64,000 nt of DNA from Candidatus Iainarchaeum sp. (GCA_017610205.1 JAFCCL010000006.1:58553-122552); one strand, 5' to 3'; shown: positions 2,348-54,852, counted from the first letter of the stretch. Made by a program: numbers and translations. Notes: a model not told the origin generated them from the letters alone.

Positions 2348-2365
2348 GCCTCAGTCCGCCCATCT
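2348..2365 (-). repeat. Direct-repeat copy of the 3' end of C/D sRNA-1 (att-like)
   Basis: gcctcagtccgcccatct, identical to 4699-4716. Confidence 0.85.
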
Positions 2366-2396
2366 TATTTGAAAGATGAAGATTTAATTCCATTTT

Positions 2397-3387: not shown

Positions 3388-3445
3388 GTAATAATACCAA
3401 ACGTTCATATATAAAAACGTTTCGTTCACACAGAAAAACAATAAA

Positions 3446-3463
3446 GCCTCAGTCCACCCATCT
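3446..3463 (-). repeat. Direct-repeat copy of the 3' end of C/D sRNA-1 (att-like)
   Basis: gcctcagtccacccatct, 17/18 identical to 4699-4716. Confidence 0.8.
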
Positions 3464-4698: not shown

Positions 4699-4761
4699 GC
4701 CTCAGTCCGCCCATCTTTCTTCATTGCTTGCGCTCTGTGTCATCGTCAGTTCATCATCGGC
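4699..4761 (-). ncRNA. C/D-box guide sRNA (sRNA-1)
   Basis: Minus strand: gccg ATGATGA(C) actgacgatgaca CAGA(D') gc-gcaa-gc a ATGAAGA(C') aagatgggcgga CTGA(D) ggc. Terminal gcc/ggc stem; 12-13 nt guides. Confidence 0.8.
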
Positions 4762-7198: not shown

Positions 7199-8779
7199 TT
7201 AAATCATTTTTTTGTCGATTTCTTTGATTGTTCCGTTGCTTACTTTTAGAATTCGTTGTGCAATTTTTTCAATGAAGTATCTGTCGTGAGAAATTGCAAG
7301 AATTGCACCGTTGTAATTCAAAAATGCGTTTTCAACAATTTCGCAGGCGTCAATATCCAGGTAGTTTGTTGGCTCGTCAAGCAAAAGCAAGTTTGGTTTT
7401 TTAATGAGAATTTTGAGAAGGTTTAGCCTGGATTTTTCACCCATTGACAGTTGAGAAATTGGCTTGGATACATCTTTATCAGTAACAAACCCAAGCATGG
7501 ACAATTGCTGGCGCGTTTTAGCACGGTCTTTAAACAAGGAGAATATTTCGTCGTACAAGGTGGCTTTGATTGTTAGGTCTTTGAGTTCCTGGTCTACATA
7601 ACCAAGCTTTGCCTTTGAGTCCAAAATCACTTTGCCAGAAATTGCCGAAACGCGGCCTTCGATTGTTTTGAAAAGCGTGCTTTTGCCTATTCCGTTTTCC
7701 CCAATTAAAACAGTTCGTTGGCCAAGACCAGCATTAAAATTTATGTTGGAAATGAGCGGTTTTTCATACCCTACACACAGGTCAACCAGGTCCAAAATCA
7801 CAACTGAATTAATTGGGGTTGCTTCAAAGGAGGTTTTGAATCTTGACTGGTCCAGGTCTGGTTTTTCAATAATTTTGCGCTTTTCCAAAAGTTTTTCACG
7901 ATATTTTCCTTGCTTGACTTTCTGGGGGCTTTTGCCAAGGCGGGCTATTTTGTCTTTTTGAATAGCAATGTATTTTTCTTCTAATGAGTAGGCTGCTTTT
8001 TGGGCTTTAAATGTTGCTTCACGCGTTTTTATGTATGCTGAATAATTGCCGTTGTACTTAATCCATTTTCCATTCTCTATTTTTAGAATAGTGTCGCACA
8101 CACTGTCCAAAAAATACCTGTCATGTGTGACCATAAGCACAGTTCCTTTAAAAGCGCGCAAGTGGTTTTCCAAAATACCTAAGCGTTTAAAATCAAGGTG
8201 ATTGGTTGGTTCATCAAGCAACAAAAAATCTGCGTCAGAGGATAAAATCTGGGCCAAGGCAATAATCGCGCGTTGTCCTGTAGAAAGTGAGCCAATGGAT
8301 TGGTTGAGCCATGATTCTTTAATCTCAAGAGTTTGTAAAGCGTATTTGATTTTGTTAATAGGAGGCAGGGTTTGGTGCTTTGCAATTTTTGCCTGCAATT
8401 CCACATAGAGCTCCATTAGCTTGCTTACTTTATTATTGTCTTGATGGATTTCTGGGCGTGAAAGAAGCTGCTCAATTTTGTGCAATTTTTTTTCAAACTG
8501 ATTTTGATGATGAATTGTGGCGCTTTCTCCAAGTGTTTGACACACTGTTTTATTCAAGTCCAAATCAACTTGTTGGGAAAAATAAACTGCTTTGCCATTG
8601 AATTCAATCTTGCCGTTGTAATCCACTTGGCCTAAAATTGCTTTGAGAAACGTTGTTTTTCCAACTCCGTTTCTGCCAATAAGACCTACTTTGGAACCAT
8701 CTGCAAGCCCCACGCTTTCGTCAAGCAGTATTTCCTTGCTGCCAAGAGAGATTGAAAGGTTTTTAACAGAAAGAGCCAT
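7199..8779 (-). CDS. ABC-F family ATP-binding protein (ribosome-associated)
   Basis: Two ABC domains (GRNGVGKTT...LLDEPTNHLD...THDRYFLD; GENGIGKST...LSMGEK...DEPTN) and no TMs. Confidence 0.9.
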   Translation of the reverse strand: MALSVKNLSISLGSKEILLDESVGLADGSKVGLIGRNGVGKTTFLKAILGQVDYNGKIEFNGKAVYFSQQVDLDLNKTVCQTLGESATIHHQNQFEKKLHKIEQLLSRPEIHQDNNKVSKLMELYVELQAKIAKHQTLPPINKIKYALQTLEIKESWLNQSIGSLSTGQRAIIALAQILSSDADFLLLDEPTNHLDFKRLGILENHLRAFKGTVLMVTHDRYFLDSVCDTILKIENGKWIKYNGNYSAYIKTREATFKAQKAAYSLEEKYIAIQKDKIARLGKSPQKVKQGKYREKLLEKRKIIEKPDLDQSRFKTSFEATPINSVVILDLVDLCVGYEKPLISNINFNAGLGQRTVLIGENGIGKSTLFKTIEGRVSAISGKVILDSKAKLGYVDQELKDLTIKATLYDEIFSLFKDRAKTRQQLSMLGFVTDKDVSKPISQLSMGEKSRLNLLKILIKKPNLLLLDEPTNYLDIDACEIVENAFLNYNGAILAISHDRYFIEKIAQRILKVSNGTIKEIDKKMI

Positions 8780-8929
8780 GTATAATTATCATTTGCACAA
8801 ATTCTTTAAAGTATGTTAAAAATTATTTTTTTTTCCAGATTTCGTACTTATTACCAACTTACCATTGGCAAAATGTTGTCTTGCAAAAGAATTAAAAGCG
8901 TGGAATGCGTTATTTTTTTGGTTTTTTTA

Positions 8930-10030
8930 ATGCTTGTTGAGGAAAAGGTTTTGCTAAGACCAAAGGATGTCAAGCCTTTGGTAAGGGGCTGGGTTGTTAT
9001 GGGCGTGCTGAATCCTGCAGCTGTGAGGCTGCCGAATAAGAAAATAATGCTTTATACAAGGGTTTCTGAAATGCCAAAAGGACATATTGGAACAGGCTTG
9101 AAATGCCCGGTGATTGTTTCAGACAAGCAGGTGAAAAGAAAGGGCTACAAGCTTAGCAGCATGAAAATAAGCAAGGCAAAAATTGTTGGTGAAGAAGAAA
9201 ACGTAATCTATCTGAAGGATGAAACATGCAGGCTTAAAACAAGCTCGCATTTTCGCAGAATAATTTTGGACAAAGCAGGATTTGAAGTTGAAAAAATTGA
9301 TATGCTTCCAATTTTTACAGGAACCCATGAAGAAGGACAATTTGGTGTTGAAGATCCAAGCATTACAAAAGTCGGTGACAAATATTATATGACATATGTT
9401 TCTGTTTCACTGCACGAAGGAGTATGCACTTCAATAGCTGTTTCAAGCAACCTCAAAAATTGGAAAAGAAAGGGAATAATTTTCAGGGAACAAAACAAGG
9501 ATGTAGCCCTTTTTCCTGAAAAAATCAGGGGGCGTTTTGTTGCATTGCACAGACCGGAAGGATTTTTTGAATTCAGCCGCCCATCAATGTGGATTTCCCA
9601 TTCACCTGACTTAAAATACTGGGGTGAAGAAAAAAGCATTATGCAGACAAGACCTAATTCCTGGGAAACCGAAAGGGTTGGGGCAGGAACAACCCCTATA
9701 AAAATCAAAGAAGGCTGGCTGGAAATATACCACGGGGTGCAAAAAGACAAAAAAGGCAACAAGATTTACAGTGCCGGAGCAGTACTTTTTGACAGGAATA
9801 ATCCGACAAAAATAATTGCAAGAAGCCCAAGAACACAGCCTTTGTTCAAGCCTGAAAAAAGCTATGAAAAAAGTGGTTTTGTAAACAATGTTATATTTCC
9901 ATCAGAGGCAATTCCTGATTTGAATGGAAAAAATTTGCTTGTGTTTAGCGGGGCAGGCGATTCTGTTACAACTGTGAAAAAAGTTGCAATAAAAGACATA
10001 TTAAACCACATGCATTTTATTGGAAATTAA
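8930..10030 (+). CDS. GH130-like glycoside phosphorylase/hydrolase (five-bladed propeller)
   Basis: GVLNPAA, FGVEDPSIT, NKDVALFPEKI, LHRP, GWLEIYHGV, NVIFP. Confidence 0.85.
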   Translation: MLVEEKVLLRPKDVKPLVRGWVVMGVLNPAAVRLPNKKIMLYTRVSEMPKGHIGTGLKCPVIVSDKQVKRKGYKLSSMKISKAKIVGEEENVIYLKDETCRLKTSSHFRRIILDKAGFEVEKIDMLPIFTGTHEEGQFGVEDPSITKVGDKYYMTYVSVSLHEGVCTSIAVSSNLKNWKRKGIIFREQNKDVALFPEKIRGRFVALHRPEGFFEFSRPSMWISHSPDLKYWGEEKSIMQTRPNSWETERVGAGTTPIKIKEGWLEIYHGVQKDKKGNKIYSAGAVLFDRNNPTKIIARSPRTQPLFKPEKSYEKSGFVNNVIFPSEAIPDLNGKNLLVFSGAGDSVTTVKKVAIKDILNHMHFIGN

Positions 10031-10196
10031 TAAATGCCTAATTTAGCCAGATAATACCTACCTTTAGGGCTGTTTTGAGAAATTTTACAAAATAGTGCAT
10101 CAATTTTTACAATGGAAAGGCTTTAAAATCTGAATGTTTGATAAGATATTTGCTTAATTTTTAATGCTAATTGGGAAAATTTGGGAGGCTATTAGT

Positions 10197-10616
10197 ATGA
10201 CAGACAAACAAAATGACGAAAAAATATTGCCAGAAAATGGTGAAGAAACACCAGGAACAGAGGAAAAAATTGTTAAGGAAGAGGCTGCTGAAGTTGAACG
10301 TGATGATTTGCCTTTCCCAAAAGCAACAATTGTTAACATGCTTAGAAAGCATTTAAGCTCTGGAAAGCAAATTAAGGGCCAGGTAAAGGATGAAATGAAC
10401 CTTTGGCTTGGAAAAATGGTTGAAAGAATTGCCAAAAAAATGGACTCTCACCCTTATGCATATGTTGACGGCGGAATGCTAAGGGATGCAATAGAGCCAT
10501 ATGAAACAGTGCAGGAAATAGAGCTTGAAAAGGAAAGGATAGTAAAGCAGCTTGAAAGCATTAAGGCAGCTTGTGACATTCTGATAAGCGAAGTGGACAG
10601 GAAATTTAGAAAATAG
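10197..10616 (+). CDS. Histone-fold (NF-YB/HAP3-like) protein with an acidic N-terminal tail
   Basis: LPFPKATIVNMLRKHL...QIKGQVKDEMNLWLGKMVERIAKKM...YVDGGMLRDAI fits the three-helix histone fold. Confidence 0.65.
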   Translation: MTDKQNDEKILPENGEETPGTEEKIVKEEAAEVERDDLPFPKATIVNMLRKHLSSGKQIKGQVKDEMNLWLGKMVERIAKKMDSHPYAYVDGGMLRDAIEPYETVQEIELEKERIVKQLESIKAACDILISEVDRKFRK

Positions 10617-10619
10617 ACC

Positions 10620-11180
10620 TTATTCTTTTTCAATTGCCTTTGAATATACCTCTGCGGTTCTTCTAAGGCCACTGAGAAAATTGTCTATTTTGCCGCTTTT
10701 TCTGAGGGCTGCATCAAAGCTAAGCAGGCCTGTCCTGCCCATCCCACTGGCAAAAGACTCAAAATTATTGGAAATCCCTTTTCCAAGTTGGAAGGCATCT
10801 ACTCCAAGAGCAAACCTGTCCTTGTAAAAGATTCTTTTGACAAATTTGGCAGAGTCTGGTCCCAATTTCCTAAAAAGCAGGTTAACGCTTGTGCCAAGAC
10901 CCATAAAGAAAAAGGACGTGTTGTTCTTTCCAAGCCCCATTGCAAACTTTACAGGCTGCCTGGCAATCAAAGCAATTATCAGCCCCTTTTGCCGCATTGA
11001 GTACTGCGTTGCCTTGTTTTGCTTTAAGGATTCGGCAAGAATGAATGCTTTTTCTTTTGTGGCAAGGTTTTCCCATTTGCCAGCCTTAAGATATAGCCTC
11101 CTTGTTTTAAGGCGCTTGAAGAAAAAGGCCTGAACTCCCCTTGTTCCAAGCACTCTTCTTTTTTGTTTTGGTTGATGCAT
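10620..11180 (-). CDS. Hypothetical highly basic protein
   Basis: 186-aa ORF with a K/R-rich N-terminus (MHQPKQKRRVLG); no recognised domain. Confidence 0.6.
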   Translation of the reverse strand: MHQPKQKRRVLGTRGVQAFFFKRLKTRRLYLKAGKWENLATKEKAFILAESLKQNKATQYSMRQKGLIIALIARQPVKFAMGLGKNNTSFFFMGLGTSVNLLFRKLGPDSAKFVKRIFYKDRFALGVDAFQLGKGISNNFESFASGMGRTGLLSFDAALRKSGKIDNFLSGLRRTAEVYSKAIEKE

Positions 11181-11252
11181 TCTTTATCACAATAAAATAA
11201 AACTTGTTTTTCTATTTATTTAAATCTTTTCTTCCAAAATTTCCACAAACCT

Positions 11253-12161
11253 TTATTTTTTCGGTTGCCGCCAGTGAATTCCGCGCAAAGATAAGGAAAA
11301 TCTTTTTATAATTGCTCCAGCATCTTTTTTGGAAAATGTTTTTCCTTTTGGCAAGCCTATGGCAAGCTTGAATTTTGGATTGTTCAAAAGCTTCAGCAAT
11401 CCTGAATTAAGCAAACTTGAAACCAGCGAAGGACTTATTTCCATGATTTCGGCAATTGCCCTTGTAGGAAGAGATTGCTTTGAAAGAAACCTAAGCCTTA
11501 AAACTCTGGCAGTGCGCTTGTCAAGGTATTGGACAAACGCCTTTGAAAGGTATTCACGCAGGTCATTTGCCTCTGCACGCTTGAGTGGATTGGAATGCCC
11601 TGCCTTTCCTTCAATAAGGTCAAAAAGCTTGCTTCCTTTACCTTTTCCGGTTTCAACAAGTTTATCCCCTGAAAAAGGCCTTATTCCGCGATGTGCAGAC
11701 CTTAGCCTTGAAATTAGGTTAATGGCAGAATCTCTTTCAGCAATTGTTTTTGATTCAAAAACTACTTTGTAAAGCCGTTCAATTCTTTTGTTTAATGCAA
11801 CCTCGTTTGAAATTAATCTCAAAACCTCTTTTGAAAGAGCAATTACCGGAGCTTTTTGCTCAAGCATTGTAATGACTTCACCCTTTGCCCTTGAGTAAGC
11901 AAATGTATTAAATTTAATGCCTTGTGATGGCTCAAACCTTGTATAAGCATCCATTACCCCAATAAAAGCCGCCTGTTTGAAATCATTTTTGGAAATACGC
12001 CCTGATTTTGCTACAGCATTATATTTAAAGAAAAGCCTGTTTGAAACATTGTCTGCAATCTTGTAAGCCTTCTTTACAAATTTTACATCAAATGTCTTTT
12101 GAACTTTCTTTTTCCTTGGTTTTGGTTTTTTTTGTTCACTTGGTTTTTTTTGGCTCATCAT
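11253..12161 (-). CDS. Sigma-70-family (FliA/SigF-like) sigma factor homolog
   Basis: Region 2-like DFKQAAFIGVMDAYTRFEPSQGIKFNTFAYSRAKGEV; region 4-like LDKRTARVLRLRF...TRAIAEIMEISPSLVSSLLNSGLLKL. Confidence 0.8.
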   Translation of the reverse strand: MMSQKKPSEQKKPKPRKKKVQKTFDVKFVKKAYKIADNVSNRLFFKYNAVAKSGRISKNDFKQAAFIGVMDAYTRFEPSQGIKFNTFAYSRAKGEVITMLEQKAPVIALSKEVLRLISNEVALNKRIERLYKVVFESKTIAERDSAINLISRLRSAHRGIRPFSGDKLVETGKGKGSKLFDLIEGKAGHSNPLKRAEANDLREYLSKAFVQYLDKRTARVLRLRFLSKQSLPTRAIAEIMEISPSLVSSLLNSGLLKLLNNPKFKLAIGLPKGKTFSKKDAGAIIKRFSLSLRGIHWRQPKK

Positions 12162-12239
12162 TCTAAAGAATAATTCCTTTTTAAGGATTTATAATCCTTG
12201 CTGTTTCAGCAAAATTCCAAAATTTGCAATACCTGGTTA

Positions 12240-12797
12240 CTACCCCAAAATTGCATTAACTTTTGCTGCAATTGCCCCTTTTGGATTTCTGAGCAGGAAT
12301 CCTTCAATTACTGAAAGATTGTGGCATTTTCTGTTGCAGGAAGCCTTTTCAAAGTCAATTATTACAGGCATTCCTTTTCTTACCAGAATGTTTTTGCCGC
12401 TTCCTGCAAGCTGACCGTGGTCCAGACCAATTTTGTCAAGGACCTTTGCCTGCCTTTGCAGCTCTTTGACAAAACGCTTTAGTCCTGTTTTTGAAGGGCC
12501 CGCAAAAATCCATTCTGAAAAGCACGAGCCTTCAATGAATTCCATTAAAACAATTCTTTTTTCAAGATCTGCATCAAATAATTTTGGGCCAATTCCAACA
12601 CCGTTTGCCTTTTTCAAATTTTCAGATTCCCTTTCAGCCATTTTAAATCGCGTACTGTCATGCCGTTCCATTTTGATTACAAAAAAAACTCCTTTTTTAT
12701 TCCTTGCAAGAAAAAGGTGGCTGCTAAAGCCCCTGTCAATCTTTTTTTCAAAGAAAAGCTTTTTTTTGAGCAGGAATTCTTTCAAAGTTGAATGCAT
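12240..12797 (-). CDS. Atypical (RIO/Bud32-like) Ser/Thr protein kinase
   Basis: IDRGFSSHLF, VIKME, IGPKLF, MEFIEG, HGQL...KNILV, IIDFEKAS. Confidence 0.75.
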   Translation of the reverse strand: MHSTLKEFLLKKKLFFEKKIDRGFSSHLFLARNKKGVFFVIKMERHDSTRFKMAERESENLKKANGVGIGPKLFDADLEKRIVLMEFIEGSCFSEWIFAGPSKTGLKRFVKELQRQAKVLDKIGLDHGQLAGSGKNILVRKGMPVIIDFEKASCNRKCHNLSVIEGFLLRNPKGAIAAKVNAILG

Positions 12798-12857
12798 AAT
12801 CTATTTATAGAAGAAAAGCAATTAATTACTTGTTTTGCTTTAAAAGGAGTGATTTTT

Positions 12858-13550
12858 ATGGAAGGAAAAATAACACTTGTGAAAACAGGAACACCTGGTT
12901 TGGACGAACTTTTTACAAAAGGCGGATTTGACCACAGTAGCAGCATTCTTGTAAGCGGAGAGCCAGGAGCAGGAAAAAGCATTGTTGCATTGCAATACAT
13001 TTACAACGGCGCACGTATTTACGGAGAAGCAGGAATTTATGTCACCAGTGAACAAAGCATTGAAAAAGTAAGGGAAAACGCAAAATCTCTTGGAATGAAT
13101 TTTGCAGAGCTTGAAGAAAAAGGGCTTGTAAAGCTAATGAAGATTCCAATAAATCGCGGCTATGAAATGGCTGACGATGAATTAATGCGCGAAATCAAAA
13201 AGGAAGAGGTAAAAAGGGTTGCAATTGACTCAATAACGCCTTTGGAAAATCTTTCACCGGACATTAGAGGATTTAGAGTAAGAATACTTGGATTTATTGA
13301 AACAGTTACCGCAAATAACATAACACTTTTGGTTACAGCTGAAAAGCGCAAAACAGATTTTGACAACATGGAGTTTTCTCCGGAAGACTTTCTTTTCGAC
13401 GGACTTATTATGATGGGAAGGCTTCGCAAGGCAGTAAGCTTTGAAAGAGTATTAAGCGTTATAAAAATGCGTGGAACAAAGCACAGCGAGGAACTGCATC
13501 CTGTTGAAATAAGCAATTCAGGGCTTGTGATTAAAAGCCTTGAAGAATAA
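12858..13550 (+). CDS. KaiC/RAD55-like RecA-superfamily ATPase
   Basis: TGTPGLDEL..GG, GEPGAGKS, VAIDSIT, VIKMRGTKHS; GGAGTGA RBS. Confidence 0.9.
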   Translation: MEGKITLVKTGTPGLDELFTKGGFDHSSSILVSGEPGAGKSIVALQYIYNGARIYGEAGIYVTSEQSIEKVRENAKSLGMNFAELEEKGLVKLMKIPINRGYEMADDELMREIKKEEVKRVAIDSITPLENLSPDIRGFRVRILGFIETVTANNITLLVTAEKRKTDFDNMEFSPEDFLFDGLIMMGRLRKAVSFERVLSVIKMRGTKHSEELHPVEISNSGLVIKSLEE

Positions 13551-13672
13551 AGTTTTGTTAATTGCTTAAAAACAACTAAGTTTATTAAAAAAAAGCAATT
13601 AAGTTTGTTTTTTAAAAAAAAAGATAATTTGGGCATTTTCATTGAAACACCCTTTAAAATAAAGCAAAACAT

Positions 13673-13828
13673 TTAGTCTGCTTCAGGAACTGCATCAGCT
13701 TCTGTTTCAGATTCAGTTTCCTCTTCAGATTCAGTTTCCTCTTCAGATTCAGTTTCCTCTTCAGATTCAGTTTCTCTATCTGTTTCTTCGTTAGGTGCTT
13801 CGCCTTCTTTCTGAAATTTTATATTCAT
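13673..13828 (-). CDS. 51-aa hyperacidic repeat peptide (not in the ORF track)
   Basis: MNIKFQKEGEAPNEETDRETESEEETESEEETESEEETESETEADAVPEAD; GGAGTGA RBS upstream; 18-bp tandem repeats. Confidence 0.65.
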   Translation of the reverse strand: MNIKFQKEGEAPNEETDRETESEEETESEEETESEEETESETEADAVPEAD

Positions 13829-14036
13829 TATAAATCACTCCCGATTGTTTTATTTTTCTAAAATAAATAGTTTAAAACTATTAAGCAACATTTTTACAAA
13901 AAAGCTTAAAAAAGGAATTTGGAGCAGGTTTCCCATAAAAAAAACGAAAGGAAATAAAAATGGTTGCAATGATTATTTTTCAAAAACTTTTCATTGTAGG
14001 AAATATTTAAGTAAGGGAAAGGGCTTTAGTTATTTC

Positions 14037-15509
14037 ATGCCTCTTTTCTATGGTGAAAAAAGGGCAATGAATGAAATTGCCTCAGTTCTTTCTTCGCAGT
14101 GGAGCAATGGAATGCTTCCGCAAATAAGATTTGTTCCAGGACAAACAGGCTACAGCCCTGATGAAGAAGAATGGGGAGTTACTGCAAAAATAAGCGGAAA
14201 CAAAAAAGTAAGGACTTCAGGAATTACACAGCCCCCGAACATTGCCTTTGCACTATGGAAGGTTTTTAACAGCTCGCAGAACAAGGAAGAGCTTGTGCCA
14301 GCCCTCAAAGAATTTTACCCAAAGCTCAAAAAATACCATTCATTTCTTTTAAAGGAGCGTGACCCTAAAGGAGAAGGTCTTGCGTCCGTTTTTCACCCAT
14401 GGGCAACTGGTTCTGATAACACTCCGTGTTATGACGAGCTTGTAAAAAGCGTGGGAAAAGATCTTAGAGAAAATGGATTTGAACAAAGAATAAAAAAAAG
14501 AAAAGATGCGATTTACGTTGACAAAAGCCAACGACCAAAAGAAAAGGATTACGAAACCTATGGAAGGCTGCTTGGCTTTTTTGTTGCAAAAAAGTATGAC
14601 CAAAAAAGACTCTGGAAAGAATGCCCTTTTGTTGTTCAGGATATTTTGTTTAACTGCATTTTTAAGGAATCACTTTCCGCAATGGCAAAAATTGCAGACG
14701 CTCTTTCTTTGGAAAAAGAAAAAAAGCTTGATGAAAAGCTTGCGTTAAAGGTTAAAAATGCAATAAAAAGCAAATTGTATGATGAAGAAACAGAACTGTT
14801 TTATTCTTTTGATGTAAAAGGGAACAAGCTGATAAAAATTGCAACAGTGCATTCACTTGCGCCACTTTTTGGAAAAATTGCATCCAAAGAACAGGCAAAT
14901 GCATTGATAAAGCATTTGAAAAGCGAAAAAGAATTTAATCCAAAGAACGGTTTTATGGTTCCAAGCGTTCCACTTAACGGAAAGGAGTTTAATCCAACAG
15001 GATATGCACGCGGACCTGTTTGGCCTGTGCGAAACTGGATTGTTATAAAAGGCCTGGAAAATTATGACAAGAAGTTTGCAAGAAATCTTAAAGAGGAAAC
15101 AATTGCATTAATTTCACAAGGCTTTAAGGGAATTGAAGAACTTGAAAGCCTTGCAGCTTCCCTAATGGAATACAACAGCTTTAATGAATCATTTACTACA
15201 CCCTCCAAAACACAGTACTGCCACGGATGGCTTTGGGATTCTGGATTTGCAGCAATTGGATGGAGTAGAGTAAGAAAAAAACCAGACCCAAGGATTTGGA
15301 AAAATGTGGAGTTGCGAAAGAAAGTACTTAGGAAAGAAGGAGCCAGTTCCGCTGAAATTAAAAATGCTCTTGGAAAGGAATTCCAAATGCCTTTGTTTGA
15401 TGAATACTTTACCCCAATTGCTTCAAAGAAAGGAGTGGCTGGAATGCCTTTGGGCTCTGAGAAAATGACCTGGACAGCTGCGCTGCTTCTTGACTTGCTT
15501 CATTCATAA
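14037..15509 (+). CDS. GH63-like (mannosyl/glucosylglycerate hydrolase-like) glycosidase, rearranged
   Basis: QWSNGMLPQI, TSGITQPP, HPWATGSDNTP, YARGPVWPVRNW, FDEYF...MTWTAALLLD. The WLWDS motif is displaced to the C-terminal part. Confidence 0.8.
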   Translation: MPLFYGEKRAMNEIASVLSSQWSNGMLPQIRFVPGQTGYSPDEEEWGVTAKISGNKKVRTSGITQPPNIAFALWKVFNSSQNKEELVPALKEFYPKLKKYHSFLLKERDPKGEGLASVFHPWATGSDNTPCYDELVKSVGKDLRENGFEQRIKKRKDAIYVDKSQRPKEKDYETYGRLLGFFVAKKYDQKRLWKECPFVVQDILFNCIFKESLSAMAKIADALSLEKEKKLDEKLALKVKNAIKSKLYDEETELFYSFDVKGNKLIKIATVHSLAPLFGKIASKEQANALIKHLKSEKEFNPKNGFMVPSVPLNGKEFNPTGYARGPVWPVRNWIVIKGLENYDKKFARNLKEETIALISQGFKGIEELESLAASLMEYNSFNESFTTPSKTQYCHGWLWDSGFAAIGWSRVRKKPDPRIWKNVELRKKVLRKEGASSAEIKNALGKEFQMPLFDEYFTPIASKKGVAGMPLGSEKMTWTAALLLDLLHS

Positions 15510-16559
15510 CAGTTTTTCTTTAAACAATTTGAAAGCAAGCTTTGACTTTTTCTCAGCCTTTTTCCTTTTTGCAAGAAGCCTTTTTCTTGAAGCAGGCAAA
15601 TTTTTGTACAACTTTGTTGTTTTTCTCGCAAGCTCTTCTGCCTTAAAACCCTGTTCCACTTCAAAACTTTGCCAGCCAAAAGCCTTTACAAGATTTCTTG
15701 TTTTTGCAGTAAAATCAATTGCAACAAACGGCTTTCCGATTACGGCGGAAAAAACAAGTGAATGAAAACGCATTCCGACAACAAGGTCAAACTTTTCAAA
15801 AGTTTTTGTCAGTTTCATTCCAAGAGGCTTGTATTTCAAAAGCCTTACCTTTTTGCTTTTAACACCTGAAAGAATTTTTTTGCAGAAGATTGTGTCATAC
15901 TTTTTAAAGAAAGGAAAAATTTTAATTCCTGCACTTGTGTCAGAAGAAACAAGGTCAATTGCTTTTGCAATCTTTTCCGCAAGTTGCTTGTCTTTTTTTG
16001 GTTTGAGCTCAAAAATTTCATAAAAGGGAATGGGACAGAAAAGAATTGCGTTCCTTTTTCTTCTATCAGGCTTTTTGCTTTCAGTAAAAGTTAAATCTGC
16101 AGAAACATAAATTTGCTTTTTAACATTAGCTTTCCTAAGCTGGTCCCTGCTTTCATTGTCCCGCATAATAATCAAATCGGAGTTTTCGCAAAGCTTTCTT
16201 GCAAGAGCCCTTCCTTTTGCTGTCTTAAGCTTGGTGGAACCAATTGAAAGCAAACAGGTTTTGACACTTGGTTTTTTTGCCTTCAAAAAAAACTTTACCA
16301 GATTTTCAAAACCTTTCAATCTGTAATCCTGGATTTGTGTTCCGCCGCCAAGAATAAAAAAATCATACTTTAGATTTGCAAGATTTGCTTTGGGGTTTAT
16401 GGCCTCAATCCCAAAAGCCGTCCTTGTTTTTGCAGGGTTTCCTGAAACAGCAATTGTTTTGATACTAAGCTTTTTGAACTGTTTGGCAATAACCTGCAGC
16501 ATTGCGTCATCACCAATATTATCTTTGCCATAATACCCATAAACTAAAGCGGTTTGCAT
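15504..16559 (-). CDS. Polysaccharide pyruvyl transferase (CsaB/WcaK-like)
   Basis: GYYGKDNIGDDA, ILGGGTQIQD, MRDNES, SADLTF, GMRFHSLVFS. Confidence 0.88.
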   Translation of the reverse strand: MQTALVYGYYGKDNIGDDAMLQVIAKQFKKLSIKTIAVSGNPAKTRTAFGIEAINPKANLANLKYDFFILGGGTQIQDYRLKGFENLVKFFLKAKKPSVKTCLLSIGSTKLKTAKGRALARKLCENSDLIIMRDNESRDQLRKANVKKQIYVSADLTFTESKKPDRRKRNAILFCPIPFYEIFELKPKKDKQLAEKIAKAIDLVSSDTSAGIKIFPFFKKYDTIFCKKILSGVKSKKVRLLKYKPLGMKLTKTFEKFDLVVGMRFHSLVFSAVIGKPFVAIDFTAKTRNLVKAFGWQSFEVEQGFKAEELARKTTKLYKNLPASRKRLLAKRKKAEKKSKLAFKLFKEKLL

Positions 16560-16609
16560 GAAAATAAGAAAGCACATGGAATAATAAAAGCCTTTCTGCA
16601 AGCAGGGTG

Positions 16610-17788
16610 TTAGCCAAATTTTGCTTTGAATTGGACTTTCAATGATTGTTCTTTGCCAAGAACTTGGACAAGCTTGACCCAGTTTTTCTGCAATTGCTGG
16701 TATTTTTTCTTGTTCTTGTCTGCAAAGCTTCTTGCATCAAACAATGAAACCTTGATGTTTGCCAAGTGGATTTTTGCTTCAGAAAATTTTGCCGTGAAAA
16801 CAGAGCCTAAAAAAAGCAAAAGGTCTGTCAGCACAAGCTTTATGTAAATGCTTCTTTTGAGAAACATTCCAGGATAGGGGTCAAGCTCTTCTATTACGTT
16901 TGAAGGCAATTTTTTTTCTTTTATAAATTCAAGAATCTTCTTTCTCTCATAGATGAACCTGTAAGCATCCTTTCTCATGTAAACACACCAGTCAGACATC
17001 TTTTTGGGAGGAGGCAAATGCGTTATTGCAAGCTCTTTATCAAGGAAGAAGTACAAACCATAAGCTCTTGCGTTAATCAAAAGGTCCATATCCTCTCCAT
17101 AGGGAATAAGGGAATCAAACATAAGCTTGTGAAACAGGTCTTTGTGTAAAACTATGTTGCCTCCAAATGCAAAGCTTGTTTCCTTCAGCCTTGGTTCCTT
17201 GCCAATAATTGAAAAGGCCTTGTTCATGTTCTTTATTTTGTTCCAGAAAACATCCCACCAAAGCTTTTTCCAGTTCCAAGGCACAAGGTAAGAGCCGGAC
17301 CTGTCAACATAATAGCCTGCAACAGCCCCAACAAACTTTCCATCAAAGCACTTTCCAATGAACTCCCTGGCTTTCTTTAGGAATTTCTTGTCTTCAATCA
17401 ATTCATCATCATCCAGAAACATTATTATTGGCGAGCCAAGGAGGATGCCTATTGCAAGCCCAAAATTTCTGAAACAAGAGTAGTTGCCGATTGCTACAGA
17501 GCCCTTTAGGTCAGCTAAGCCTTTTGAGGAAATAAATTGGTGAAATTTTTTGACATCACGATAGCTTACTTGTGCAATTGGAAAGTGTTTTCTAAAAGGA
17601 GAAATTATTTTATCAATTTTTCCCCTTACCCTCTCATTGTACTCCAAATCATAGGTATTATTTATTATCAAAACGCGGAAATTTTTTTCGTTAAGTGAAC
17701 GAATACTTTCAAGCAACTGAACAAAGGTATTGTGCTTTAATTCGAGTCTTTCTCCAAAGGTTGCAATCACTATAAGCATTTCCTGCAT
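16610..17788 (-). CDS. GT-A (family 2-like) glycosyltransferase
   Basis: RNFGL...FLDDDE (DxD), AFGGNIV, FD..IPYGEDMD. Confidence 0.75.
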   Translation of the reverse strand: MQEMLIVIATFGERLELKHNTFVQLLESIRSLNEKNFRVLIINNTYDLEYNERVRGKIDKIISPFRKHFPIAQVSYRDVKKFHQFISSKGLADLKGSVAIGNYSCFRNFGLAIGILLGSPIIMFLDDDELIEDKKFLKKAREFIGKCFDGKFVGAVAGYYVDRSGSYLVPWNWKKLWWDVFWNKIKNMNKAFSIIGKEPRLKETSFAFGGNIVLHKDLFHKLMFDSLIPYGEDMDLLINARAYGLYFFLDKELAITHLPPPKKMSDWCVYMRKDAYRFIYERKKILEFIKEKKLPSNVIEELDPYPGMFLKRSIYIKLVLTDLLLFLGSVFTAKFSEAKIHLANIKVSLFDARSFADKNKKKYQQLQKNWVKLVQVLGKEQSLKVQFKAKFG

Positions 17789-51011: not shown

Positions 51012-51187
51012 TTTGTTTTTACCTCCTTGCAAACTAAGAACGGGTTTTTTATTAAAAAGTCTTTGCTTTTGTTAGGAAAAAACCTTTCAGGGAATTTTTG
51101 AAAAAGATTCAATGAAAGCCCTTTTAATCGTTTATTGGTATTTTTTTGTAGGCAAGAACAAGACAAACCATCCAAAGGCAATAGATT

Positions 51188-51544
51188 ATGAACCTAAAAC
51201 TTTCAATCATGAATTTTCTTAAAATAACTTGGAAGAAAGCAGCCGCAATTGTCTTGTTTCCTCTTGCAGCATTTTTGATACTGCTTTTTGCCTTTGTGTT
51301 TGATGAAATCCTTGGTTTGGGAGGAAACGTAATCGTTAACACAATGTACTTGTTTGCGAATTATTTTTATCTTTTTATTTTCCTGCCGCTCACTTTTGTT
51401 GACATTGATTTTTCTTCCTCGCTTGTTTTAGGAATAGCCCTTGTACTAACAGTTGTCTGGGGGTATCTTTTGTCATGCACCCTAATTTTTGTCATGAAAA
51501 AAATCCTGAAACATAAAAAAATTGGAAAAAAACCAATAATTTAA
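51188..51544 (+). CDS. Hypothetical membrane protein
   Basis: Three TMs, 118 aa. Confidence 0.6.
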   Translation: MNLKLSIMNFLKITWKKAAAIVLFPLAAFLILLFAFVFDEILGLGGNVIVNTMYLFANYFYLFIFLPLTFVDIDFSSSLVLGIALVLTVVWGYLLSCTLIFVMKKILKHKKIGKKPII

Positions 51545-51694
51545 GGCAATAACACCATATGGCACATTAGGCGATGATGAAGTAATAATCTATATTCACT
51601 ATAGGTAATAATAGGTGTTTGTATATTTTTATCTCAAAAAAAAACAGTATTAATACATCTTTTAGGCATTCACTTGTATTAGTACTGTGCTGTC

Positions 51695-52072
51695 CTATGC
51701 TTCGATTATTCCACCAAATCCAACTTTCCTTATACCGATTTTAAGAATTCCATCTGCCGTTCCGCTTACCAGCTGTCCTGCTTTTGGTGTAACGCCAGTA
51801 CTTGTTATTGATACTTTTATGTTTGTGTTGATTTTGCCGTCCTTGGCTTTTTGAATTTTCCCACTTAGCGCGTTCAACTCGAACTCGTTCTCAAACCTCG
51901 CCCTATTTAGGCCGCCGTTCGGTTCATGCAAAATCAACTCAAATTCCTTTATTTTTCCAGACCCACTTACCAGCAAGCCATATTCCATTTCGTTTTCTCT
52001 TACAAACTTTTCAAGTTCTCCAATTACCTCATAACCATCATTCAACCTTAGAATAAACGTTTTTTCAACCAA
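51695..52072 (-). CDS. PPC/DUF296 domain protein
   Basis: FILRLNDGYEVIGELEKF...SGSG...FELNALSG...AGQL; GAGGTGG RBS. Confidence 0.75.
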   Translation of the reverse strand: MVEKTFILRLNDGYEVIGELEKFVRENEMEYGLLVSGSGKIKEFELILHEPNGGLNRARFENEFELNALSGKIQKAKDGKINTNIKVSITSTGVTPKAGQLVSGTADGILKIGIRKVGFGGIIEA

Positions 52073-52266
52073 AAAACCACCTCAATAAAAGGAAAGTTAA
52101 CTGCATCCAGCTTCCCGCCTCCAAAAAAAATATTTGCTAATAGTGTTATCCTGAAAATGTTGTTCTTTTTTCTTACCTTAAATGTTAGCCTTTTTGAATT
52201 CTTTTAAGGCGTTTTCTATTCTACTTATTTTACTGCTATTTTTTGCAGGAGTGTGTTTTTCTAAAA

Positions 52267-52833
52267 ATGCGTTACAGAATTGTTAACCTGGTTGCCTATT
52301 CAAATTTGCAGCAGACACTGGACTTGTATAATTTAGCATTAGCCATTCCAAATATCGAATATGAACCAGAGCAGTTTCCAGGAGCTGTTTTGAAAATTAA
52401 AGAGCCAAAGGTCAGCATGCTGTTATTCAAAAATGGAAAAATCATTGTCAGCGGCGCAAGCAGTGAAAAGCAAATTACTACAGGAATCAGAAAAGCGTTA
52501 AAGCTGCTTCATGAAGTTCAGCCAGAAATAAAGGTTAGAAGGAAAATCGAGTACAAGGTGGTCAATATGGTTGCTTCAGCCAGTTTGAACAAAAAACTTG
52601 ATTTGTTTGAATTGGCTCTTGGCTTAGACAATGTCGAGTATGAACCGGAACAATTTCCAGGAGCAGTAATGAAGATAACAGAACCAAAGGCAAGCATTCT
52701 TCTTTTCTTGAACGGTCAACTCATTTGCGCTGGAGTTAAGAACGAAAAAGACTTAAAAAAAGCGCTAAACAAAACAAGAAAATTTGTGAAACAAGCGTTG
52801 AAGAAAACAGGTGGTCAAGCTGCCAAAATGTGA
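52267..52833 (+). CDS. tbp: TATA-box-binding protein
   Basis: Two repeats of NxVA...EYEPEQFPGAV...LLF.NG....GA/GV. Confidence 0.93.
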   Translation: MRYRIVNLVAYSNLQQTLDLYNLALAIPNIEYEPEQFPGAVLKIKEPKVSMLLFKNGKIIVSGASSEKQITTGIRKALKLLHEVQPEIKVRRKIEYKVVNMVASASLNKKLDLFELALGLDNVEYEPEQFPGAVMKITEPKASILLFLNGQLICAGVKNEKDLKKALNKTRKFVKQALKKTGGQAAKM

Positions 52834-52845
52834 AAGGTATGGAGC

Positions 52846-53013
52846 GTGGATTTCCTCGAGCGTTACGCTATGCGTAAAATGCAGGAAGAGTTTGAAGAAA
52901 ACAGGGCTAAAAAGGATAGGATAAAGAAGGCATTATCCTTAGACTTATCAAAAACCAGAAAAAAATATGAGCCCAGAAAACCAATTGATGCAATTAAAGG
53001 CATAGTAAATTAA
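52846..53013 (+). CDS. 55-aa basic hypothetical protein downstream of tbp (not in the ORF track)
   Basis: GTG start: MDFLERYAMRKMQEEFEENRAKKDRIKKALSLDLSKTRKKYEPRKPIDAIKGIVN; 12 nt after the tbp stop. Confidence 0.5.
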   Translation: MDFLERYAMRKMQEEFEENRAKKDRIKKALSLDLSKTRKKYEPRKPIDAIKGIVN

Positions 53014-53035
53014 ACATTAACACTTATATTTTCAA

Positions 53036-53062
53036 TAGGCAATGATGAGGTTAACTTCTGCT
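53036..53062 (+). repeat. Direct-repeat copy of the 5' end of C/D sRNA-2 (att-like)
   Basis: taggcaatgatgaggttaac is a 20-nt exact match to 54305-54324; 25/27 overall. Confidence 0.85.
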
Positions 53063-53187
53063 TTAACTGCAGGTTTTGATAAAAGACAATTGCAAATTTT
53101 CACTTATGAAACCGGTTTCAAACAAAGCATATATAGTGTTTCAAACAGTAAGGTTAACATTAACAAAATATCTGGAGATGATATTAA

Positions 53188-53724
53188 ATGAAAACAAGAT
53201 ATATTCTAGCCATTGTATGCGTCATGGCCATACTAATAGGCACGGCAAGTGGATCTGCACTATCAGGAACACTCTTTGATAAAAGCATTAAAGGCGACTT
53301 TGATTTGAAAGGAAAAATTGACACTGCAAGATTTGAGGCAAAAGCAGAAGTCATGGGAATGACAGTAGAAGAATTCAAAACATTCCTGGTAGAAGAATTT
53401 GAAGCAAAAGCAGAAGAAATGGGAATGACAGTAGAAGAATTCAAGGAATACCTTGTAGAACAGAAAAAAGGAAAATTCAGAGTACTTGAGGCAAAAGCAG
53501 AAGAAATGGGAATAACAATGGAAGAACTAAGAAGACGTATTGCAGAAGAAGGAAAAGAAGGATGGATGGACAAAAGAAGAGTATTCGAGGCAAAAGCAGA
53601 GGCCATGGGAATGACAGTAGAAGAATTCAAAACATTCCTGGCAGAAGAATTTGAAGCAAAAGCAGAAGAAATGGGAATGACTCCGGCCGAATACAAAGAA
53701 TCTTTTGGAAAGCAGAAAAAATAA
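53188..53724 (+). CDS. Secreted protein with EAKAEEMGMTVEEFK repeats
   Basis: Signal peptide and five helical repeats visible at both DNA and protein level. Confidence 0.8.
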   Translation: MKTRYILAIVCVMAILIGTASGSALSGTLFDKSIKGDFDLKGKIDTARFEAKAEVMGMTVEEFKTFLVEEFEAKAEEMGMTVEEFKEYLVEQKKGKFRVLEAKAEEMGITMEELRRRIAEEGKEGWMDKRRVFEAKAEAMGMTVEEFKTFLAEEFEAKAEEMGMTPAEYKESFGKQKK

Positions 53725-53739
53725 AGACAGCGGTAAGCA

Positions 53740-54252
53740 ATGGAAAAAAACCCTTTTCATAAAACAGACAGTCATATAGATTTTGTCCAGCTAAAAAGAA
53801 AGAAGCAAGCAATCTATATGATTTTTCTATTTGTTTCCCTGTTTTCAATTTCGTTTATTTTCTTTTCAAACGCCATTACAGAAATTGATGTTACAGTAAA
53901 TGGCGAAACACCAGAGTATGTTGAAATACCGGCAATGTTTTCCACAATGCAAGTAATTTTTTTAATGATTCTCACTTTTGTCAGCACAGCGTGTTTTCTT
54001 TTGTTCTATATTGATTTCAACAAGGGCGATAAGAACAATAAGAAACAAAAAATTGCCAGCAGTGTTTTGGAAGGGGACAAGAAAAAATTGTATGAGATTA
54101 TACTGGAAAAAAATGAAATATTACAAAAGGACCTTGTTTACGAATCAGGTTTTTCAAAAGCAAAAGTAACCAGAATTTTAAGAAAACTGGATGACAAGAC
54201 ACTAATTGTTGTAAAGCCCTGGGGCAACACCAACAAAATAATAATAAAATAA
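53740..54252 (+). CDS. Two-TM membrane protein with C-terminal wHTH (membrane-bound regulator)
   Basis: LEGDKKKLYEII...ILQKDLVYESGFSKAKVTRILRKL...WGNTNKI. Confidence 0.8.
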   Translation: MEKNPFHKTDSHIDFVQLKRKKQAIYMIFLFVSLFSISFIFFSNAITEIDVTVNGETPEYVEIPAMFSTMQVIFLMILTFVSTACFLLFYIDFNKGDKNNKKQKIASSVLEGDKKKLYEIILEKNEILQKDLVYESGFSKAKVTRILRKLDDKTLIVVKPWGNTNKIIIK

Positions 54253-54304
54253 AAGAAGCCAGCAAAAGCAACGAGTATAAAAATATTATAACCTATAAGG
54301 ATTG

Positions 54305-54369
54305 TAGGCAATGATGAGGTTAACACCTGCTGACCGAAAGGAATGACGATTAACTCAACTCTGAGCCTA
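54305..54369 (+). ncRNA. C/D-box guide sRNA (sRNA-2)
   Basis: taggca ATGATGA(C) ggttaacacctg CTGA(D') cc-gaaa-gg a ATGACGA(C') ttaactcaact CTGA(D) gccta; terminal stem taggc/gccta. Confidence 0.88.
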
Positions 54370-54405
54370 ATTTAAATTTGTTTCGCTTTTTCTTTTATTG
54401 CAAGA

Positions 54406-54852
54406 ATGGTGTTTGAAAAAGGCAATTTGAAGGTTGCGATTGTTTATGTTGCACTGCAGGTAATCATTTGGATAAAGTGCGCTGCGTTCTATTTGCTGTA
54501 CGGAGCAGGGCGTGTTGCAAACTTTAACAGTTTTTTGTTTCCGGCAGACGCAATTGCGTTCAATTTCTTTTTTCACGAAGCAATGCATGTTGGCATTGGA
54601 ATTCTTGCACTGTTATTTGGAAAGAATTTGAAAAAGATTGAGTGGATTAAGCTTATTGCAGTTATCTTTGTCGCAGTTATTATTCACAACCTCGCTTACT
54701 GGTTTACATGGTCACATGCAAGCATTGCCTATAGCGTGTTTGATTTTGCAAGCGACAGCTTAATGCTGCTCGGAGTTGTGCTTGCAGGATATTTACTTAA
54801 TAAGATTTGGATGCTGTTAAAAAAACGAAAATGTTCAAAGGAAAAGATTTAA
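54406..54852 (+). CDS. Hypothetical four-TM protein
   Basis: Hydrophobic; HEAMH and HN motifs may bind metal. Confidence 0.6.
   Translation: MVFEKGNLKVAIVYVALQVIIWIKCAAFYLLYGAGRVANFNSFLFPADAIAFNFFFHEAMHVGIGILALLFGKNLKKIEWIKLIAVIFVAVIIHNLAYWFTWSHASIAYSVFDFASDSLMLLGVVLAGYLLNKIWMLLKKRKCSKEKI

Follow-up and report, generated by a model that had tools for sequence, protein, structure and literature searches.

The question raised by this locus is how a box C/D small RNA (sRNA) gene came to have its 5' end duplicated, with protein genes lying between the two copies. The window, by which we mean the whole 64,000-nt stretch of Candidatus Iainarchaeum sp. DNA that was analyzed (G000:C10:58553-122552), comes from a 1.37-Mb archaeal bin of 24 contigs that is 92% complete (G000). 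G003 and G004 are congeners of this genome, G040 belongs to another family, and order-wide searches covered 151 genomes. A first-pass annotation of the window had described a canonical sRNA at 54305-54369 whose first 27 nt recur at 53036-53062, and had proposed that the sRNA gene is an attB site. Our results make it likely that a 14-nt core in the 5' part of this sRNA gene is the crossover site of one clade of tyrosine integrases, and that repeated events at this site built an array of cassettes at 51150-54369. The three cassettes of the array are bounded by four copies of the core, of which the leftmost is decayed and the rightmost lies in the intact sRNA gene:

51150..51167, + strand: decayed leftmost core (GGCAAGAACAAGAC followed by AAAC), left border of the array, found by reading
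51570..51583, + strand: core copy with 2 mismatches (GGCGATGATGAAGT), junction of cassettes 1 and 2
53036..53062, + strand: sRNA 5' fragment, an attL-type junction, with its core at 53038-53051 (repeat search, alignment and profile)
54305..54369, + strand: complete C/D box sRNA, an attR-type junction, with its core at 54307-54320 (box scan, profile and Rfam)

Reading and a box scan of 54305-54369 (+) gave the order TAGGC-A-ATGATGA (box C), 12 nt, CTGA (D'), 9 nt, ATGACGA (C'), 11 nt, CTGA (D) and GCCTA. The hallmarks of an archaeal sRNA are present, namely box C (ATGATGA, 54311-54317), box D (CTGA, 54361-54364) and a terminal stem (TAGGC/GCCTA), together with internal D' (CTGA, 54330-54333) and C' (ATGACGA, 54343-54349) boxes and two guides, 12 and 11 nt long. 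A profile derived from 23 complete orthologs covered 54305-54368 over its full length with 68.5 bits, and the description of this sRNA as canonical is upheld. The sRNA scored below the gathering score of every Rfam family; across the window only three tRNAs reached theirs. All nine of the sub-threshold Rfam matches (9/9) in 52950-54450 fell on 54302-54372 and all were to C/D-box families, the best being sR1 with 22.6 bits (45 needed). The sRNA belongs to an order-specific C/D box family. It resembles archaeal box C/D sRNAs such as Rfam sR1 (RF01152) in the order and spacing of its boxes, in its length and in its predicted pair of guides for adjacent rRNA sites, and differs from those in Rfam in that its family reaches no gathering score.

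The segments 53036-53062 and 54305-54331 form a 27-nt direct repeat with 25/27 identical positions (93%) at a spacing of 1269 nt, exactly as first reported. The first 20 nt of the sRNA occur exactly twice in the window, with 0 matches in 100 shuffles. The unit shared by the junctions is the 14-nt core GGCAATGATGAGGT, which comprises the 3' part of the stem, box C and three guide bases. Boxes D, D' and C' are missing from the 53036 copy, as is a 3' partner for its stem; reading found no CTGA between 53063 and the start of casA at 53188, in agreement with the earlier statement that no D boxes follow it. No Rfam C/D family matched this copy even at E values up to 5, and the 23-ortholog profile aligned with it over the 5' part only (E 7e-4). 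Scanning G000 with the same profile revealed 3 full-length and 10 truncated sRNA copies. All truncated copies (10/10) start at profile position 2-3, and the number of 3'-only copies was 0; by reading, C, D', C' and D are all intact in just one of the full-length copies, that of the window. The two-copy picture of the first-pass annotation was correct in that both copies are real, but it missed the two upstream cores, 51570-51583 and 51150-51167. The latter retains 8/14 core positions by our own count; its positional homologs, before the same gene, read GGTAATGACGAGGT plus AAAC in G003 and GGCAATGATGAGGT plus aaac in G005 (L041 3482).

From left to right, the array consists of the decayed core, up118, a core, a PCC gene with a TATA-binding protein (TBP) paralog and a 55-aa open reading frame (ORF), a core, casA with casB, and the complete sRNA. 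Its cargo and arms, and the gene that anchors its right side, are the following:

51188..51544, + strand: cassette 1 cargo, up118, a 118-aa membrane-like ORF; no Pfam match
51584..51640, + strand: cassette 2 left arm (ATCTAT-attca-CTATAGGT...), homologous to the integrase-proximal arm, with the integrase gene absent
51695..52072, - strand: cassette 2 cargo, PCC-domain protein of 125 aa (PF03479, 42.5 bits)
52243..52833, + strand: cassette 2 cargo, TBP paralog (PF00352, 169.7 bits)
52846..53013, + strand: cassette 2 cargo, 55-aa ORF; no Pfam match
53052..53187, + strand: cassette 3 left arm (TAAC-ttctgctttaaCTGCAGGT...), which travels with the cassette and resembles the G092-type arm
53188..53724, + strand: cassette 3 cargo, casA, a repeat-rich protein of 178 aa with a hydrophobic N terminus (by eye)
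53740..54252, + strand: cassette 3 cargo, casB, a membrane protein with a C-terminal winged helix-turn-helix (DUF7343)
54253..54304, + strand: cassette 3 right arm, with an A/T-rich TATA-like box (54275-54289) some 25 nt ahead of the 5' end of the sRNA
54406..54852, + strand: anchor gene dn148 (148 aa), followed by a 356-aa ORF and RNase HII; vertical backbone right of the sRNA

The genes casA and casB are as first described, a repeat-rich secreted protein and a membrane winged helix-turn-helix protein. casA contains a 139-nt unit three times and has in Pfam only weak SinI-like repeat matches; the winged helix-turn-helix-type match of the casB C terminus to DUF7343 reached 31.5 bits (cut-off 27.6), and the N-terminal hydrophobic stretches of casB were seen by eye.

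Comparison with the congeners showed that these cassettes have moved. G003 has casAB first, then the tbp block, then up118 and finally the sRNA, with each cassette bounded by cores; in the window up118 comes first, followed by the tbp block, casAB and the sRNA. Between the two genomes casAB was 98.7% identical over 1291 nt, the tbp block 89.2% over 1359 nt and up118 84.4% over 437 nt at the nucleotide level (80% for the protein), whereas the backbone right of the array was 65.4% identical over 3470 nt. In the pairwise alignment of casAB, identity extended from GGCAAT on the left to GAGGT on the right, and the outer flanks were unrelated: the 53052-53187 arm is identical in G003 from the core on and unrelated upstream of the core, and the 54253-54304 arm is common to G003 up to the core. 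A DNA search found casAB in one of the six congeners (G003), at the other array position just described, so that the two genes are not vertically conserved at this place; the right flank was kept in all relatives examined. The up118 gene lies between tbp and the sRNA in G003, and in G005 it lies in a different array adjoining the RPA gene. In Logan contigs of one metagenome run (depth 2-3.5), the left end of casAB stood behind a different upstream arm and its right end was unlike the window after 54333; this arrangement is a third context for casAB, weak on its own.

The first-pass annotation had also predicted that relatives would show the tbp/small ORF followed directly by a single sRNA. This prediction fails: the further core copies upstream, at 51570-51583 and 51150-51167, mark the tbp block as a mobile cassette in its own right. 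The TBP gene of the window rides on this cassette, which is 89% identical to G003 against 65% for the backbone. A second TBP gene of the genome lies at G000:C3:131509-131895 (74% at the nucleotide level).

A further case links two families. Over 2579 nt, the cassette G000:C20:42827-45405 shares 95.7% identity with a G040 contig, and the G040 contig switches within the core to the backbone that in G000 precedes the sRNA paralog on C13. That paralog, at the third sRNA locus of the genome (G000:C13:116817-116880), is a full-length copy with a mutated D box (TTGA). In G040 (L131, G040:C28, 2672-5527) the backbone upstream of this locus is 78% identical and leads into a different cassette. Another large arrangement is found in L029 (G016:C15), where 8.7 kb (7930-16677) lie between a partial core and a full sRNA, and the homologs of its genes are distributed in G000 over C13, C14 and C22. 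Recombination between core copies in G016 may also have rearranged the chromosome.

Complete elements in relatives connected the core with an integrase. In G124, 12.2 kb lie between two cores, and the gene for a 432-aa tyrosine recombinase (PF00589, 65.6 bits, with a C-terminal zinc ribbon) is situated 71 nt after the core. Because the same 12.2-kb stretch encodes a terminase large subunit, we regard this element as a provirus. The G124 integrase was used to search the order, and the 30 loci returned were examined for a same-strand core with at most 2 mismatches. Such a core was present 67-128 nt upstream of the integrase gene at 8 of the 30 loci, and all 8 were among the 10 closest homologs. 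Arranged by identity, the core was linked to 6 of 7 integrases at 59% or above (the seventh has 37 nt of upstream sequence), to 2 of 3 at 40-42%, and to none of the other 20. The same was seen in metagenome contigs from JGI, where 6 of 7 homologs (55-74% identity) had a core 67-68 nt upstream and the seventh has 51 nt of upstream sequence. By our own estimate, the chance of finding the 14-mer with at most 2 mismatches in 60 nt is about 2 in 10,000. These integrases fall below all NCBIfam cut-offs, those for XerA and the integron integrase included, and are 28-30% identical to archaeal-virus integrases in the phage collection.

Two further elements, of 6.1 kb in G047 (cores at L127 1643 and 7752) and 12.6 kb in G020 (cores at 86 and 12664), run from an upstream arm through a core, the integrase, cargo and a further arm to a second core and a full sRNA in which every box is present. 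An intact gene rebuilt at one end of the insert was found in G047, in G020 and in the window, where the profile match at 54305-54368 is full length and the casAB insert is flanked by the direct repeats 53036-53062 and 54305-54331 with breakpoints at the core. The region between core and integrase contains, in order, ACTATAGT-like words, a TTTAAAAA-type box and a second CACTATAGT word. This motif order recurs without an integrase after the cassette cores of G000, at 51584-51640 and, diverged, from 53052 onward; that of the 51584-51640 arm was also found upstream of integrase genes in G092 and G111. In L127 (G047:C27) a thioredoxin-like gene is present at both ends of the element, at 1225-1611 and 7344-7733. 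The two copies are about 90% identical in the gene (an estimate; the mean column identity of the whole alignment is 85%) and diverge in the promoter region. The G047 element has apparently picked up a copy of upstream DNA from its host.

The proposal that the sRNA gene serves as attB thus gains support from the displacement of casAB in G003 with breakpoints at the core, the linkage of integrase and core, the elements in G047 and G020, and the uniform 5' fragments (10/10). According to the model that we favor, the first 14-16 nt of the sRNA (5' stem plus box C, GGCAATGATGAGGT) would serve as the crossover core, and recombination would be run by one clade of integrases of about 430 aa carried on proviruses and other integrative elements. 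A conservative site-specific exchange, its strand-exchange positions lying within the core, would separate the body of the sRNA gene and its promoter, leaving the host promoter and a core at the head of the insert (53036-53062), about 150 nt before casA. The far arm of the insert, with its A/T-rich box at 54275-54289 about 25 nt before the start, would rebuild a complete and presumably expressed sRNA; the 54253-54304 arm is, on this model, a putative substitute promoter for the sRNA. With a core retained at each junction, recombination could take place between any two cores, and arrays, permuted order and integrase-less cassettes would result. Since neither the cassettes of the window nor G000 contain a cognate integrase, we infer mobilization in trans: cassettes with integrase-type arms and no integrase gene are most likely relocated, reordered and passed from genome to genome by an integrase provided from elsewhere.

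Several observations weigh against this model. An ORF and Pfam scan found no integrase gene in the three cassettes of the window, and G000, at 92% completeness, contained no integrase of the core-linked clade, its best relative being 31% identical with no core nearby. The IMG/VR viral contigs contained no relative of the core-linked integrase, and a free attP was not demonstrated. Some events in relatives have other breakpoints, for which a 5' core gives no explanation. Two small ORFs come after a full sRNA in G006 (L025, G006:C10, 6988-7660), and beyond them the last 16 nt of the sRNA recur, joined to the native downstream flank; in G017 (L028, G017:C13, ~8780-9000, - strand) about 90 nt lie between D' and C', with a duplicated 3' fragment 78 nt downstream; and G002 and G001 have kept only 3' remnants of the sRNA. 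These events, together with the 3' copies of the second sRNA of the window (4702-4757), may belong to other recombinases with 3' polarity. All genomes compared are metagenome bins, that is, metagenome-assembled genomes (MAGs). No small- or large-subunit (SSU or LSU) rRNA was found in the G000 assembly, so that the guide target was sought in relatives. Finally, reads for an excision joint, circle or empty site were absent from the low-depth contigs (2-3.5) of two DNA runs from one study, each covering a small share of the stretch; their absence speaks neither for nor against excision.

The tyrosine recombinases of G000 itself were considered as sources of the activity. None of its five tyrosine recombinase genes is near an array; the intact long integrases on C3, C18 and C24 were rejected as the cognate enzyme, being 26-31% identical to the core-linked clade with no core nearby; and G000 contained no member of the SSV-type integrase family PF16795. 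The congener G004 has an intact integrase of the core-linked clade next to a core.

The strongest of the alternatives is that the cassettes are only relics: complete elements would have entered with their own integrase and lost it by deletion, the cassettes would have ceased to move, and the G003 order would stem from separate histories or from rearrangement without an integrase. In its favor are the resemblance of the core-proximal arms to integrase-proximal arms minus the gene, the want of a cognate integrase in G000 and the leftward increase of core decay in the window array. We nevertheless consider it unlikely, because the same 1.27-kb cassette with the same two ends and 98.7% identity is found in three contexts, the up118 cassette occupies two array positions and a second locus, and identical borders are not expected from independent deletions; the intact integrase next to a core in G004 also counts against it. 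Much less probable is an origin without any dedicated recombinase, in which scattered sRNA paralogs and their promoters would have recombined by homologous or illegitimate means, yielding the fragments and reordering the genes between them. G000 does contain three full-length sRNA paralogs, some upstream arms resemble the native sRNA promoter, and the breakpoints in G001, G002, G006 and G017 are elsewhere in the sRNA; yet 14 nt of identity is very short for homologous recombination, the fragments share polarity and start in 10/10 cases, and this explanation gives no reason why, in unrelated contigs, a core should be placed in clade-specific fashion 67-68 nt ahead of the integrase start. It is hardly credible that the 53036 copy functions as an independent RNA, whether as an sRNA of its own or as a box-C leader that controls casA. 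The copy has an A/T-rich box about 25 nt upstream and may well be transcribed as the casA 5' leader, but such transcription also fits the att model, several cores of the array on C20 are followed by genes on the opposite strand, and the copy has neither D', C' or D box nor 3' stem partner and no Rfam C/D match even at E up to 5. The separately expressed sRNA that would have spoken against the attB proposal was thus not found at 53036. An assembly artefact, in which bin contigs were misjoined at a short repeat, can practically be dismissed, since, for all that cores lie at contig ends in several bins and all data are MAGs, the repeat is only 14-27 nt long, the junctions are found within long contigs (122 kb and 62 kb) from two independent bins, and the same architecture is present in JGI contigs.

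The proposed integration at the sRNA core by the linked integrase clade has parallels in known systems. Site-specific integration into tRNA and tmRNA genes is textbook knowledge. According to a 2021 review of archaeal tyrosine recombinases (PMC8371274), pTN3-like tyrosine integrases of Thermococcales use the 5' half of a tRNA gene as attB, and the rebuilt tRNA is expressed from a promoter of the element. The two systems agree in having a tyrosine integrase, the 5' part of a small stable-RNA gene as the target, an uninterrupted rebuilt gene and the need for an element promoter. They differ in the target, which is a tRNA there and here a box C/D guide sRNA with a 14-nt core (stem plus box C), and in that the integrases described here are distantly related to anything named and are accompanied by arrays of small integrase-less cassettes. 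Tandem genomic islands at bacterial tRNA and tmRNA genes were reportedly described by Williams in 2002 and 2003. These share with our array serial integration, fragment-separated rows, an intact gene at one end and older, decaying inserts farther away; their polarity is 3', whereas here it is 5', the host is archaeal, cassettes are as small as 0.4-1.5 kb, and cassette order varies between species.

Integrons in archaeal MAGs are said to have been described by Ghaly et al. in 2022. Short cassettes without a recombinase, gathered in one array around a shared site, differing in order between relatives and spread across lineages, are common to integrons and to the arrays described here. The integron integrase IntI is absent here, the core-linked integrases scoring 38-43 bits with TIGR02249 against a cut-off of 265. 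The site is moreover an RNA-gene fragment; direct repeats of the 5' part of the sRNA form the borders, with no attC-type site seen (no attC model was applied); and the cassettes carry 1-3 genes in either orientation plus TATA-like boxes. An integron/attC-like reading, which the GGTTAAC end of the core had invited, was dropped because the integrases fail the IntI model. The system would thus seem to work like 5'-half tRNA-gene integration, with a cassette traffic that is integron-like and an integrase that is not that of an integron.

The C/D guide sRNA gene would be a new target class for a known integration mechanism. The word "sRNA" has 0 occurrences in the 2021 review (PMC8371274), and a search of full-text literature found no box C/D sRNA gene described as an attachment site; the string "C/D" is unmatchable in such a search, which covers neither subscription journals nor supplements, so that a prior mention is possible. 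Mobile elements and virus-host links of DPANN archaea are poorly known. If the model is true, the 14-nt core and arm motifs would offer a simple handle for delimiting proviruses and accessory islands in DPANN genomes, would account for contig breaks and variable regions of these metagenome bins, and would indicate gene flow between families at 96% identity; an extra TBP gene would be among the genes that travel as cassettes. An integrase of compact size with its att site, from a lineage that has not been cultivated, would also become available for tests in vitro. A wider picture is quite conceivable, if short of probable: an integron-like cassette economy in Iainarchaeales-type DPANN, in which integrase-less cassettes of 0.4-5 kb sharing the 14-nt guide-RNA core would be excised, reordered and passed between families in trans from proviruses, while the cassette promoter would keep an essential sRNA expressed and the displaced host promoter would drive the captured genes.

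The sRNA itself is a host gene conserved in the order. An 18-mer core (at most 1 mismatch) was found in 53 of the 151 genomes, mostly in one copy, and the reversed control in none; G000 has 9 copies and G005 has 7. Complete sRNA orthologs numbered 23. Public records containing the 18-mer are named Candidatus Iainarchaeum or "Diapherotrites" archaeon, with one complete genome among them; about a dozen bacterial records also match, a number that fits the chance expectation for an 18-mer. The best site of the D' guide was in LSU rRNA in all four relatives with rRNA (4/4), with 10 Watson-Crick and 1-2 G-U pairs of 12. The best site of the D guide lay 29 nt downstream of the D' site in both genomes (of these four) from which a D guide was extracted. 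From these pairings, the sRNA is predicted to be a conserved guide for LSU-rRNA methylation in this archaeal order.

The three-gene block that begins with dn148 is present in G001, G002, G003, G005, G006 and G017; in G016, dn148 and dn231 were matched and dn356 was not. The sRNA or a remnant of it was found upstream of dn148 in G003, G005, G006, G016, G002 and G001. In G017 an sRNA-derived copy and 3' fragments lie about 2.5 kb upstream of the 148-aa gene. Several bins have a core less than 100 nt from a contig end (G115:C14, G070:C43, G097:C17, G020:C14 and G020:C72); that assemblies break at the core is as expected for a strain-variable insertion point.

A second array of G000, at G000:C20:30960-45983 (L013 2961-17984), contains six cores between a conserved 222-aa gene and the RPA gene. 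Its cargo includes secreted propeller-type proteins, a DUF234 ATPase, a YdjM-like membrane protein, trehalose-synthase-type and other glycosyltransferases and a GH15 hydrolase, and its left end has a decayed full-length sRNA copy. A 395-aa ORF with a TnpB/IS605 OrfB-like N terminus (by eye) lies 3 kb before this array, at G000:C20:26481-27668. The two small ORFs of the G006 event recur after a decayed sRNA copy at G000:C20:45966, where the homologs have no Pfam match. By eye these had been taken for a RelE/ParE-type pair, an assignment that was dropped because no Pfam match at E 0.001 or better was found.

Another sRNA of the window, at 4702-4757 (- strand), had been the first case noted by the first-pass annotation, which described the present locus as of opposite polarity to it. 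That contrast holds, since the displaced part of the 4702-4757 sRNA is its 3' part (AGATGGGYGGACTGAGGC), which is copied again downstream at 3445-3463 (-) and 2348-2366 (-). The copies bound stretches of about 1.1-1.25 kb, with opposite polarity and at a different sRNA gene.

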